Under the pieces are notes generated by a model, which had not been told where the DNA came from, ran no database searches, and saw only the letters and a program-made list of their open reading frames with translations. This document shows positions 9,706-28,027 of a DNA stretch of 34,856 nucleotides, in pieces (the first letter of the stretch is position 1; each line of letters opens with the position of its first letter). The position numbers and the translations under genes were made by a program. Location: UHGV virus genome UHGV-0299912. One strand, 5' to 3'. The stretch comes from a virus.

Positions 9706-9844
9706 AAAAATTGATAAATTCAATACTGCATTTCTCAGCATTAAATTTATCTCTATGACCAGTCAAGAGATGTACCTGCCATGAGCTTAATATCATGTCA
9801 GATATATCGGTCACAAACTCCCTCAGTAGCTAAGAGGAGGACAA

Positions 9845-10081
9845 ATGTCTCGACTAATCACTTTACAGGACTGGGCTAAAGAAGAATTTGGGGACTTAGC
9901 ACCAAGTGAGCGAGTTCTGAAAAAATACGCGCAAGGGAAAATGATGGCCCCACCCGCTATAAAAGTTGGTCGCTACTGGATGATTGACCGAAATTCCCGT
10001 TTTGTAGGAACGCTTGCAGAACCGCAACTCCCAATAAACGCAAACCCAAAACTCCAACGGATAATCGCTGATGGCTGCTAG
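9845..10081 (+). CDS. xis: Excisionase
   Basis: 78-aa ORF immediately upstream of and overlapping int; strong AAGAGGAGG Shine-Dalgarno; sequence recognised as an E. coli prophage excisionase type. Confidence 0.8.
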   Translation: MSRLITLQDWAKEEFGDLAPSERVLKKYAQGKMMAPPAIKVGRYWMIDRNSRFVGTLAEPQLPINANPKLQRIIADGC

Positions 10082-11213
10082 ACCCCGATCTCACAAAATC
10101 TCTATACCCAATTTATATTGCAAATTAGATAAGCGAACCGGAAAGGTATATTGGCAATACAAACATCCACTATCCGGTCGTTTTCATAGCTTAGGAACTG
10201 ATGAGAATGAAGCAAAACAAGTTGCTACTGAAGCAAATACCATTATTGCTGAACAACGTACCCGACAAATATTAAGCGTCAATGAGCGTCTGGAAAGAAT
10301 GAAAGGCAGGCGCTCAGACATTACGGTGACAGAATGGCTTGATAAATATATTTCTATCCAGGAGGACAGGCTGCAACATAATGAACTAAGACCCAACTCC
10401 TATCGGCAAAAAGGCAAACCCATTCGTCTTTTCCGTGAGCATTGTGGAATGCAACACCTCAAGGATATTACCGCACTTGATATTGCCGAAATGATTGATG
10501 CTGTAAAGGCTGAAGGTCATAACAGGATGGCGCAAGTCGTGAGAATGGTGTTAATCGACGTCTTCAAAGAAGCACAACACGCAGGACATGTTCCGCCAGG
10601 ATTTAACCCAGCGCAGGCAACAAAACAACCGCGAAATCGAGTAAACCGCCAAAGATTATCACTGCCCGAATGGCAGGCAATATTTGACAGCGTAAGCAGA
10701 CGGCAGCCCTATTTAAAATGCGGGATGCTACTTGCTCTTGTCACTGGACAACGTTTAGGCGATATCTGCAATTTGAAATTCTCTGATATCTGGGACGACA
10801 TGTTGCACATTACTCAGGAAAAAACCGGTTCAAAACTTGCTATTCCGCTTAACCTGAAATGCGATGCTCTGAATATTACCCTTCGTGAAGTTATATCTCA
10901 GTGCAGGGATGCTGTTGTTAGTAAATATCTGGTCCATTACCGTCACACAACCTCTCAAGCAAACAGAGGAGACCAGGTTTCTGCGAATACTCTGACAACG
11001 GCTTTTAAAAAGGCCAGGGAAAAATGTGGCATAAAATGGGAGCAAGGAACTGCGCCCACATTTCATGAGCAGCGATCTCTGTCAGAACGGTTATATCGGG
11101 AACAGGGTCTGGATACGCAAAAGTTGTTAGGCCATAAATCCAGAAAAATGACCGACCGATACAATGATGATCGTGGTAAAGACTGGATTATCGTAGATAT
11201 CAAAACAGCATAG
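10071..11213 (+). CDS. int: Tyrosine site-specific integrase
   Basis: 380-aa ORF with a tyrosine-recombinase C-terminal catalytic region (R...HxxR...Y context: LGHKSRKMTDRY). Adjacent to xis and the icd 3' fragment. Confidence 0.93.
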   Translation: MAARPRSHKISIPNLYCKLDKRTGKVYWQYKHPLSGRFHSLGTDENEAKQVATEANTIIAEQRTRQILSVNERLERMKGRRSDITVTEWLDKYISIQEDRLQHNELRPNSYRQKGKPIRLFREHCGMQHLKDITALDIAEMIDAVKAEGHNRMAQVVRMVLIDVFKEAQHAGHVPPGFNPAQATKQPRNRVNRQRLSLPEWQAIFDSVSRRQPYLKCGMLLALVTGQRLGDICNLKFSDIWDDMLHITQEKTGSKLAIPLNLKCDALNITLREVISQCRDAVVSKYLVHYRHTTSQANRGDQVSANTLTTAFKKAREKCGIKWEQGTAPTFHEQRSLSERLYREQGLDTQKLLGHKSRKMTDRYNDDRGKDWIIVDIKTA

Positions 11214-11223
11214 AAAACAGCCA

Positions 11224-11260
11224 GTTTTGGGGAAGGGTTTTGGGGAAAGTTTTGGGGAAG
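11224..11260. repeat. Three tandem 12-bp direct repeats GTTTTGGGGAAG / GTTTTGGGGAAA / GTTTTGGGGAAG
   Basis: Copies at 11224..11235, 11237..11248 and 11249..11260, 11 bp after the int stop and between int and the icd fragment. Candidate arm-type Int binding sites. Confidence 0.7.
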
Positions 11261-11280
11261 ATTTTACATCATCATAAAAC

Positions 11281-11303
11281 AACGGGCGTGTTATACGCCC
11301 GTT
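11281..11303. terminator. Bidirectional hairpin terminator between int and the icd fragment
   Basis: Perfect 9-bp stem AACGGGCGT / ACGCCCGTT with loop GTTAT. T-rich 3' flank on the plus strand (TTAAATATTT) and TTTT on the minus strand. Confidence 0.6.
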
Positions 11304-11326
11304 TAAATATTTAACACATGTAGTGA

Positions 11327-11494
11327 TTACATATTCTTGATGATCGCATCACCAAACTCTGAACATTTCAGCAGTTTAGCGCCTTCCATCAGACGTTCGA
11401 AGTCATAGGTTACGGTCTTGGCATTGATTGCGCCTTCCATACCTTTAACAATCAGGTCTGCGGCTTCGGTCCAACCCATGTGGCGCAGCAGCAT
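11327..11494 (-). pseudogene. icd: 3'-terminal fragment of isocitrate dehydrogenase gene icd (phage-borne att homology, e14 type)
   Basis: Minus-strand translation ...[55 protein letters not shown] is the Icd C-terminus as I recall it. Homology stops at ~11494, where the sitC sequence begins; there is no icd 5' region. Confidence 0.85.
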
Positions 11495-11496
11495 AT

Positions 11497-12180
11497 ATGC
11501 TGGGGCTTCCGTTTTCTCTGGGAGCCTTCTTTTCCGGCGGACTGGCTGCGGGCAGCATGCTGTTTCTTAACCAACGCACCCGCTTAAAAGAAGATGCCAT
11601 CATCGGCCTGATCTTCTCGTCCTTTTTTGGCCTGGGGCTGTTTATGGTGTCATTGAACCCGACATCTGTGAACATTCAGACCATCGTCCTGGGCAATATT
11701 CTGGCAATCGATCCGGCGGATATCCTGCAACTCACTATCATTGGCATTCTCTCGATCATCGTGCTTTTTTTCAAATGGAAAGATCTTATGGTGACCTTTT
11801 TCGACGAGAATCACGCCCGTGCTATTGGATTGCATCCGGGCAGATTAAAACTCCTCTTCTTCACCCTGCTGTCGGTTTCGACCGTTGCGGCGCTGCAAAC
11901 GGTTGGTGCCTTTCTGGTGATCTGTCTGGTGGTGACTCCCGGAGCAACAGCATGGTTGTTAACCGATCGTTTTCCCCGCCTGCTCATGATTGCTGTAACT
12001 ATTGGCAGTGTAACCAGTTTCCTCGGCGCGTGGGTCAGTTACTTTCTGGACGGCGCGACAGGTGGAATCATCGTGGTGGCGCAGACACTGCTGTTTCTTT
12101 TAGCATTTGTCTTTGCGCCCACCCATGGGCTTTTGGCAAATCGTCGGCGTGCGCATAAGGCGCTGGAGGATCGCTCATGA
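11497..12180 (+). pseudogene. sitC: 5'-truncated sitC (Mn/Fe ABC transporter permease)
   Basis: 227-aa frame matching the SitC/MntC/YfeC permease family from about residue 60 onward. The N-terminal ~60 codons, sitA and sitB are absent. Overlaps the sitD start (ATGA). Confidence 0.85.
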
Positions 12181-13034
12181 TGGCATTATTACTGGAGCCA
12201 CTGCAGTTCACCTTTATGAGTCACGCACTGCTGATTTCACTGGTAGTTTCCATACCCTGTGCGCTGCTGTCGGTCTTTCTGGTCCTGAAAGGCTGGGCAC
12301 TGATGGGTGACGCGATGAGTCATGCGGTTTTTCCTGGCATCGTGCTTGCCTGGATTCTGGGGTTACCTTTGGCTACAGGGGCATTCGTCGCCGGAGTATT
12401 CTGCGCGGTGGCGACGGGATACCTGAAAGACAACAGCCGAATCAAGCAAGATACAGTGATGGGGATTGTTTTTTCTGGCATGTTTGCCGCAGGTCTGATT
12501 TTGTATATTGCAGTCAAACCAGACGTACATCTTGACCATATTCTTTTCGGCGACATGCTCGGGATAACCATCGGCGATATAATCCAGACGGTGATTATTG
12601 CTGGGCTGGTTACACTTGTTATTAGCGTAAAATGGCGAGATTTTTTGCTGTTCAGCTTTGATTATCAACAGGCGCAGGTAAGCGGTTTGCATACGAGATG
12701 GCTGCATTATGGGCTGCTGTGCATGGTCTCTCTGACCATTGTGGCGACGCTGAAAGCGGTAGGTATTATTCTCTCCATTTCTCTGCTCATTGCGCCTGGC
12801 GCCATTGCGGTACTCCTGACACAACGCTTTTATATTGCGCTCCTACTGGCGACTGGCATATCGGTAATAGTGTCAATGATCGGTGTCTGGCTGTCCTTTT
12901 TTATCGACAGCGCACCAGCTCCGACGATTGTCGTCTTATTCGCGGTCGCGTTCATCATGACGTTTACCGTTACCAGCATCAACGCACGCACAAAGGGAAA
13001 CGCCCATACACAGGATCTGTTATCACCCAATTAG
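12177..13034 (+). CDS. sitD: SitD (Mn/Fe ABC transporter permease)
   Basis: 285-aa polytopic membrane protein of the ABC-3 permease family, immediately downstream of sitC. Confidence 0.88.
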   Translation: MMALLLEPLQFTFMSHALLISLVVSIPCALLSVFLVLKGWALMGDAMSHAVFPGIVLAWILGLPLATGAFVAGVFCAVATGYLKDNSRIKQDTVMGIVFSGMFAAGLILYIAVKPDVHLDHILFGDMLGITIGDIIQTVIIAGLVTLVISVKWRDFLLFSFDYQQAQVSGLHTRWLHYGLLCMVSLTIVATLKAVGIILSISLLIAPGAIAVLLTQRFYIALLLATGISVIVSMIGVWLSFFIDSAPAPTIVVLFAVAFIMTFTVTSINARTKGNAHTQDLLSPN

Positions 13035-27286: not shown

Positions 27287-28027
27287 TTAACTGGCGGTGA
27301 CGTTGATTTCTGCAACCGCAGCAAACTCACCATTACCGGATACGACCGGAATGTTGACCTTGCCTGCAGCAACACCTTTCACGGTGATGGTCATACCACT
27401 GACCGACACGGTGGCTTTTGTTTTATCCGCAGACACCGCACGGAAGCTCTTGTCGGTTGCGCCCTCCGGCTGGAATGCCACGGTCAGCGTGGTGCTCTGC
27501 CCTTTCACTACGGAAGCACTGGCGGGTGTCACCGTCATGCCGGTTGTCGCCGTCACCGTGCTGCGATCTTCTGCCATCGACGGACGTCCCACATTGGTGA
27601 CCTTCACCGTGCGGGTAATCACTTCCTTCGCCGTCACCGCCTTACCGATACTGCTGACCCAGCCACGGAACACATCGACCGTGCCGTTCGGGAAGCGGAT
27701 TTTATAGGCACGGGTATCACCTTCATTAAACCACGCCAGCAGCGCCTGCTGCCCCTGCTCTCCGGGCATCCACGCCAGCGTGAAGCTGGTATCTCCGGCA
27801 GATTTCTGCCCCTGCCCGGTCGCAGTCCAGTCTGCATCTTCATCATCGAGATAGCTGTCGTCATAGGACTCAGCGGTCAGTTCGCCGGGCGTCAGGTCTT
27901 TAACTTTTGCCAGACGCGACCAGTCAACGTCTGAAAGCGGGTTCGCATAAGGGTCACCGCTCCCCTTATAAACCCACAGGGTGGTCCCGGCACCTTTCAC
28001 CGGCATTGTAGGATTTGGTACAGGCAT
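27287..28027 (-). CDS. V: Major tail tube protein V (with C-terminal Ig-like domain)
   Basis: ORF-track frame 27287..28057. Start placed at ATG 28027 ([16 protein letters not shown]...), giving 246 aa as in lambda V; GAGGA Shine-Dalgarno upstream. Confidence 0.92.

Follow-up and report, generated by a model that had tools for sequence, protein, structure and literature searches.

Three tandem 12-bp direct repeats that follow the integrase gene of the virus genome UHGV-0299912 are, with high probability, the arm-type integrase (Int) sites on the P' arm of a phage-21-type attachment site (att), orphaned by a 2.8-kb deletion of the opposing P arm. We base this interpretation on a comparative analysis of the complete 34,856-nt stretch (hereafter, the window). 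The array is an already described and annotated element, the arm sites of phage 21 attP, and an ordinary feature of E. coli genomes rather than a new one. Its annotation can be considered settled: the repeats belong to a textbook kind of element, P' arm sites, annotated as such in the reference phage, and the only unusual point in the window is the loss of the other attachment-site arm.

The array lies in a compact module in which the excisionase ORF, located upstream of int, overlaps the integrase gene, and in which int is followed by the repeats, a terminator and a phage-borne fragment of the isocitrate dehydrogenase gene. The elements of this module are the following:

9845..10081, plus strand: xis, excisionase, 78 aa (Exc domain, Pfam PF07825, E 6.7e-6; the xis of phage 21 in M61865 and OL657228 is a match)
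10071..11213, plus strand: int, lambda-type tyrosine integrase, 380 aa (PF09003 and PF00589; DNA 98-99.5% identical to phage 21 and relatives)
11224..11235, plus strand: candidate arm-type unit GTTTTGGGGAAG, int-proximal and core-distal, equivalent to P'3 by lambda analogy; same in phage 21
11237..11248, plus strand: candidate arm-type unit GTTTTGGGGAAA, middle, equivalent to P'2 by lambda analogy
11249..11260, plus strand: candidate arm-type unit GTTTTGGGGAAG, core-proximal, equivalent to P'1 by lambda analogy
11281..11303, minus strand: intrinsic-terminator-like hairpin, AACGGGCG...CGCCCGTT followed by GTTTTAT, serving the phage-borne icd 3' end; annotated terminator in phage 21
11327..11494, minus strand: icd', replacement 3' end of isocitrate dehydrogenase, 55 codons (ORF translation; annotated icd pseudogene in phage 21)
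11470..11497, no strand: probable att core (crossover) region

The first 71 residues of Int match the lambda integrase arm-binding domain Arm-DNA-bind_1 (PF09003, E 1.8e-28, 98.8 bits against a cutoff of 22), and residues 200-367 constitute the catalytic domain (PF00589, E 9e-24). A hairpin is found at the equivalent position in nearly all related loci. Comparison with the K-12 icd gene reveals that the identity of icd' with host icd reaches ~11490, and it is at this icd-internal end of homology that the att core probably lies.

The module corresponds to the int-attP region of phage 21. Thirty phage records match positions 9800-11497 at 98-99.5% identity; among them, phage 21 (OL657228, M61865) is 98.2% identical over 1,698 bp and virion-derived lambda-like phages reach 99.5%. 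In a three-way alignment of the window, M61865 and OL657228 the 37-bp array is base-for-base equal. OL657228, the record associated with the 2022 phage 21 genome announcement (PMC9119081), annotates the same 37 bp as a misc_feature (27563-27599), stating that the 'integration site attP consists of 3 subsites P1P2P3', with consensus YYTTCCCCAAAA, and M61865 annotates the xis, int and icd pseudogene of phage 21. The original prediction had put forward the repeats as integrase-binding sites of the P' arm, and the identity with the phage 21 int-attP region, the OL657228 annotation and the PF09003 domain of Int all support that assignment. The combination of int 3' end, array and terminator beside icd is also common in bacterial chromosomes, being present in 1,679 of 5,426 complete E. 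coli genomes (~31%).

A full-text literature search returned no paper describing the arm-type sites of phage 21. Wang et al. 1997 (J Bacteriol 179:5705) are said to have mapped the smallest functional attP of phage 21 to a length of 366-418 bp, reportedly bounded by the outermost repeated dodecamers, and the thesis of S. Schneider is said to have proposed these dodecamers as phage 21 arm sites. We measured a distance of 397 bp between the outermost dodecamers of phage 21, which fits the 366-418 bp interval.

Direct reading of the window bears out the original description of three near-identical 12-bp units just past the int stop. The stop codon (TAG, 11211-11213) is separated by 10 nt from the array, whose first unit begins at the 11th nucleotide, and a single G at 11236 parts the first and second units, yielding start-to-start spacings of 13 and then 12 bp. 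Tandem Repeats Finder delimits the array at 11223-11265, with a period of 13, 3.4 copies and a score of 65. A partial fourth unit (ATTTTA, 11261-11266) directly follows the third, and most 21-type and TTTTGCAG-type loci have a comparable partial unit, (A/G)ATTTT, behind their third repeat. The search for additional copies that the original prediction had suggested came back empty: outside the array, neither strand of the 34.8-kb window contains GTTTTGGGGAAG-type copies with zero or one mismatch. Matches with two mismatches outside the array number three (14843, 24929 and 32834) against 2.8 expected by chance, and since these matches occur at chance expectation, the clustering observed next to int is far beyond it. 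A distance of 230 bp separates the array from the point where icd identity ends (11490), which places the repeats outside the crossover region, and the core-region sequence (TGCTGCGCCAC type) is unlike the TTTTGGGGAA repeats.

Comparison with characterized attachment sites places the array in a known architecture. The window shares with phage 21 attP the 37-bp array and its distance to the int stop, within a context of int, xis, terminator and icd' that is 98% identical, but phage 21 keeps a conserved P arm of ~270 bp, whereas the window joins the core to sitC. The P arm of phage 21 carries annotated cII-binding sites and a fourth dodecamer. This fourth copy, ATTTTGGGGAAA, lies in direct orientation ~112 bp beyond the core in phage 21, in Lambda_4C10 and in the chromosomal attR of E. 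coli FDAARGOS_536, and the same three sequences contain a degenerate inverted copy, TTTTGGCTAA, at ~+60. Copies on the two attP arms are thus a feature of phage 21, Lambda_4C10, the E. coli attR and also e14; in the window, where the P arm is deleted, no further copy exists.

The resemblance to lambda is one of layout rather than of sequence. In both systems three tandem direct P' units abut the int stop and Int carries the PF09003 N-terminal domain, and the 21-type P arm has an outer unit in direct and an inner unit in inverted orientation, as do P1 and P2 in a direct reading of lambda attP. The lambda unit, however, is of the CAGTCACTAT type instead of TTTTGGGGAA, its spacing is ~10-11 bp as opposed to 12-13 bp in the window, and the lambda P' array is located ~50 bp from the core. 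The ~230 bp that separate array and core in the window are accounted for by the icd 3' end and terminator carried on this arm.

The original prediction had proposed e14 and related icd-integrating prophages as the relevant comparison, and in e14 an equivalent triple repeat, three copies of TTTTGATAAC, is found beside the icd terminator, together with a P-arm copy. The K-12 prophage e14 uses the same target, icd, and its triple sits just past the icd terminator with spacings of 13 and 11 bp; its P arm harbors one exact direct copy 119 bp from the core. It differs from the window in the repeat unit, TTTTGATAAC, and in its integrase, as e14-type Int is ~60% identical and bears the N-domain signature PLYSRKVN..R. 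In K-12, moreover, ymfD, ymfE and lit part the array from intE by 3 kb. Since the e14 triple stays at the icd terminator with intE 3 kb away, the repeats belong to the attachment site and not to the int 3' end. A memoir by A. Campbell recounts that phage 21 inserts in icd at the site used by e14 with a different specificity, and that determinants had been located on the DNA of the phage (PMC3530522).

The mechanism we envisage for the intact system follows the lambda precedent. The N-terminal domain of Int (residues ~1-70) would bind the array repeats with high affinity, and the Int molecules bound there would engage, through their catalytic domains, weak core sites where icd' ends within icd, some 230 bp from the array. 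DNA bending would then bring arm and core together, bridging them into an intasome able to integrate into icd or to excise from it. An exact match to the IHF consensus, WATCAANNNNTTR, was not found in the window, including the interval from repeats to core, which leaves the bending step without sequence support. The P' arm of such a complex would be unusually long, as it must carry the replacement icd 3' end and its terminator. In UHGV-0299912 the array is sequence-perfect but orphaned, a deletion at the edge of the core having taken the P arm with both its direct ATTTTGGGGAAA and its inverted degenerate copy, and the remaining core and P' arm amount to an attL-like half site.

The deletion is evident from the sequences that flank the core on its far side, which comprise the following elements:

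11491..11497, no strand: deletion junction (phage-21 attP homology up to 11497, sitC homology from 11491; G-N-ATATA common to both)
11497..12180, plus strand: 'sitC, N-terminally truncated Mn/Fe ABC transporter permease (PF00950 match from profile position 52 of 258), outside the attachment site
12177..13034, plus strand: sitD, intact, phage b-region cargo (PF00950, E 1.5e-75)

The junction forms a perfect 14-bp palindrome, CAGCATATATGCTG, at 11489-11502, and from 11491 on the window is 100% identical to chromosomal sitC. Lambda_4C10 and ~25 similar virion-derived phages present the uninterrupted order int, P' array, icd', core, P arm, sitA, sitB, sitC, sitD and tail fibre genes. With respect to Lambda_4C10 (L006), the window lacks 2,817 bp: besides the P arm, both sitA and sitB are gone and sitC is missing its first ~57 codons, and the region of annotated cII-binding sites of phage 21 is lost in the same deletion. 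Lambda-like phages with a 21-type att that were isolated as virions (Lambda_4C10, 4A7, ev017, 1W and others) carry the Mn/Fe uptake operon sitABCD as cargo of the b region; of this operon the window keeps only 'sitC and sitD. In E. coli chromosomes the prophage form has sitABCD beside attR at icd.

The junction past the array, to which the original prediction refers, is not a normal phage-host att junction; what lies there is the deletion that took the P arm. We rejected an attL or attR junction at 11497 on two grounds, namely that the flank is sitC and not the 5' part of icd, and that the gene order is vegetative. Elsewhere the window keeps to the circular gene order of lambda-like phages, with which it is collinear: the portal gene and J are followed by tail fibres, the sit remnant, att and int, then by xis, bet and cI, and lastly by O and P. 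Judged by this organization, the window is a phage-form genome bearing a deletion, and not an attL or attR junction. The string TGGGGCTTCCGTTTT, which had been pointed out at 11501-11515 just across the junction, is indeed present, but it does not constitute a further arm site. It is native sitC coding sequence, and sitC containing this string is 100% identical in many E. coli chromosomes and plasmids, away from attachment sites; we rejected it as an arm site on account of this native sitC origin.

Exact-match scans with a 30-mer spanning the junction yielded no hits in IMG/VR, GTDB genomes or JGI metagenomes, and BLAST searches across the junction returned none in 5,426 E. coli genomes, 50,697 phage records or plasmids. 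The deletion thus appears to be private to this genome. Its closest parallel is lambda b2, an att-ended deletion that removes the P arm. In both cases a b-region deletion ends at the att core and leaves the core and P' arm beside an intact int; the deletion in the window differs from b2 in that it also truncates a cargo operon, sitABCD. It may have been promoted by Int or mediated by the G-N-ATATA microhomology. By this analogy, UHGV-0299912 is probably an integration-defective phage, Int-positive but unable to integrate. An unlikely variant of this scenario holds that Int itself made the deletion by acting on a secondary sitC site, in the manner of att-ended deletions of lambda, and that the core and P' arm persist as an active attL-like site capable of recombining with the attR of a resident 21-type prophage. 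Were this the case, the phage would lysogenize only beside a resident 21-type prophage.

The assignment of the array to the P' arm of a phage-21-type att was further examined across Int relatives. A scan of GTDB genomes provided 80 loci (L007-L086) encoding Int relatives with 50-99% identity, in genera including Kosakonia, Proteus, Providencia, Xenorhabdus, Pectobacterium, Klebsiella and Serratia, among others, and the array was sought within ~130 nt past the int stop. In 53 of the 80 loci, the int stop and the icd-terminator hairpin enclose a tandem array. These arrays fall into four repeat classes, TTTTGGGGAA, TTTTGATAAC (e14 type), TTTTGCAGAAG and ATTTTACTGAG, and in all four the spacing is always 13 and then 11-12 bp. 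Copy number varies slightly, with two units in L018 and four in L021. The 22 loci that contain neither array nor icd' fragment have other sequence after int, as in K-12 e14. The absence of the repeats from homologous int-att modules had been named as the observation that would count against the original prediction, and the opposite was found, as the array is present in every 21-type module in which int abuts icd'.

Conservation in these loci is concentrated on the repeat units. Within classes, mean pairwise identity of the units is 0.83-1.00, against 0.42-0.58 for the flanks (10-14 nt on each side), except in the closely related ACTG set. For the 21-type arrays, identity across genera amounts to 0.92 for the first unit, 0.83 for the middle unit, the lowest of the three, and 0.94 for the third, with 0.42 in the upstream and 0.45 in the downstream flank. 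Repeat class follows the N-domain of the adjacent integrase. The TTTTGGGGAA class is found with Int at least 66% identical to that of the window, and where the Int N-domain differs, a triple repeat of another sequence, with unchanged spacing, takes the place of the TTTTGGGGAA type. Residues 17-24 and 29 of Int are class-specific, with the signatures CKLDKRTG..Q, PLYSRKVN..R, CFxDPRTK..Q and CYTDARTK..R. This co-variation could in part reflect linkage of adjacent DNA, the classes also being clades.

A single locus in the survey, L033, is discordant. Its Int is of the 21 type through approximately residue 300 and of the e14 type in residues 301-380, and it is this crossover inside int, near codon 300, that has placed a 21-type Int N-domain beside e14-type repeats. 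The chimeric int is trailed by only two such repeats. Loci L033 and L034 are located on the same contig of Providencia alcalifaciens BIGb0506, 13 kb apart, and the chimera appears to stem from a natural crossover between these two elements.

The co-variation of repeats and integrase does not by itself single out Int as the protein that binds them. The repeats could instead be recognized by Xis or another accessory DNA-bending protein, assembling a cooperative filament comparable to that on lambda X1-X1.5-X2. It is well established that the lambda Xis sites are also three closely packed direct repeats, and a xis gene in the same module would be expected to change along with the array in the way int does; taken alone, the co-variation is compatible with Xis binding because xis is inherited with the same module. 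The layout of the sites argues against this reading. In phage 21 and e14 the motif is found on both attP arms, a hallmark of bridging Int arm sites, and the lambda Xis sites are on one arm only, the int-distal one. The number of units and their position abutting the int stop match lambda P'1-3, and the phage 21 record names the repeats as att subsites. We therefore regard recognition by Xis as very unlikely, and retain the assignment to Int.

The base composition of the 21-type units suggests a function at the level of nucleic acid structure, whereby a G-quadruplex in the 3' UTR of the int mRNA or on the non-template strand would modulate int expression. The array does contain four G-runs (GGGG, GGG, GGGG and GGGG) in units that resemble the T4G4 telomere repeat, and, lying past the int stop but ahead of the first hairpin, it could be transcribed with int. 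Yet the TTTTGATAAC, TTTTGCAGAAG and ATTTTACTGAG classes occupy the same position without G-runs, and since three of the four classes lack them, G-quadruplex potential is not a conserved feature. In e14 the array lies 3 kb from int, and the predicted RNA fold of the array segment is unremarkable except for the terminator hairpin (z = -1.96). A role as a G-quadruplex is, on these data, exceedingly improbable. The notion that the array is a functionless microsatellite generated by slippage beside int can be given practically no weight, since its slight variation in copy number (two units in L018, four in L021) is set against units conserved across genera, down to an Int identity of 66% and amid diverged flanks, against a fixed spacing of 13 and then 11-12 bp in four classes, and against the further copy in the P arm.

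Interpreted as arm-type sites, the repeats of icd-integrating phages offer four pairs of arm-site and Int N-domain specificities that could serve studies of arm-site recognition.

Two candidate small RNAs were also considered as identities for the array and rejected. The prophage sRNA C0293 of e14 (icd-ymfD) maps to 812-883 of locus L004, beyond the e14 repeats (543-576), and svsR, an sRNA of the NC-SV prophage, maps to the 3' end of cI.

A second set of tandem repeats was noted elsewhere in the window, at 1414-1503, where TTTACCTGATTCGGGTAAACGCC-like units of ~19-23 bp occur in 2-3 copies. They lie inside a 339-codon ORF on the minus strand (948-1967), in a part of the genome where similar phages have replication protein O annotated, and are probably the iterons of the replication origin (ori).
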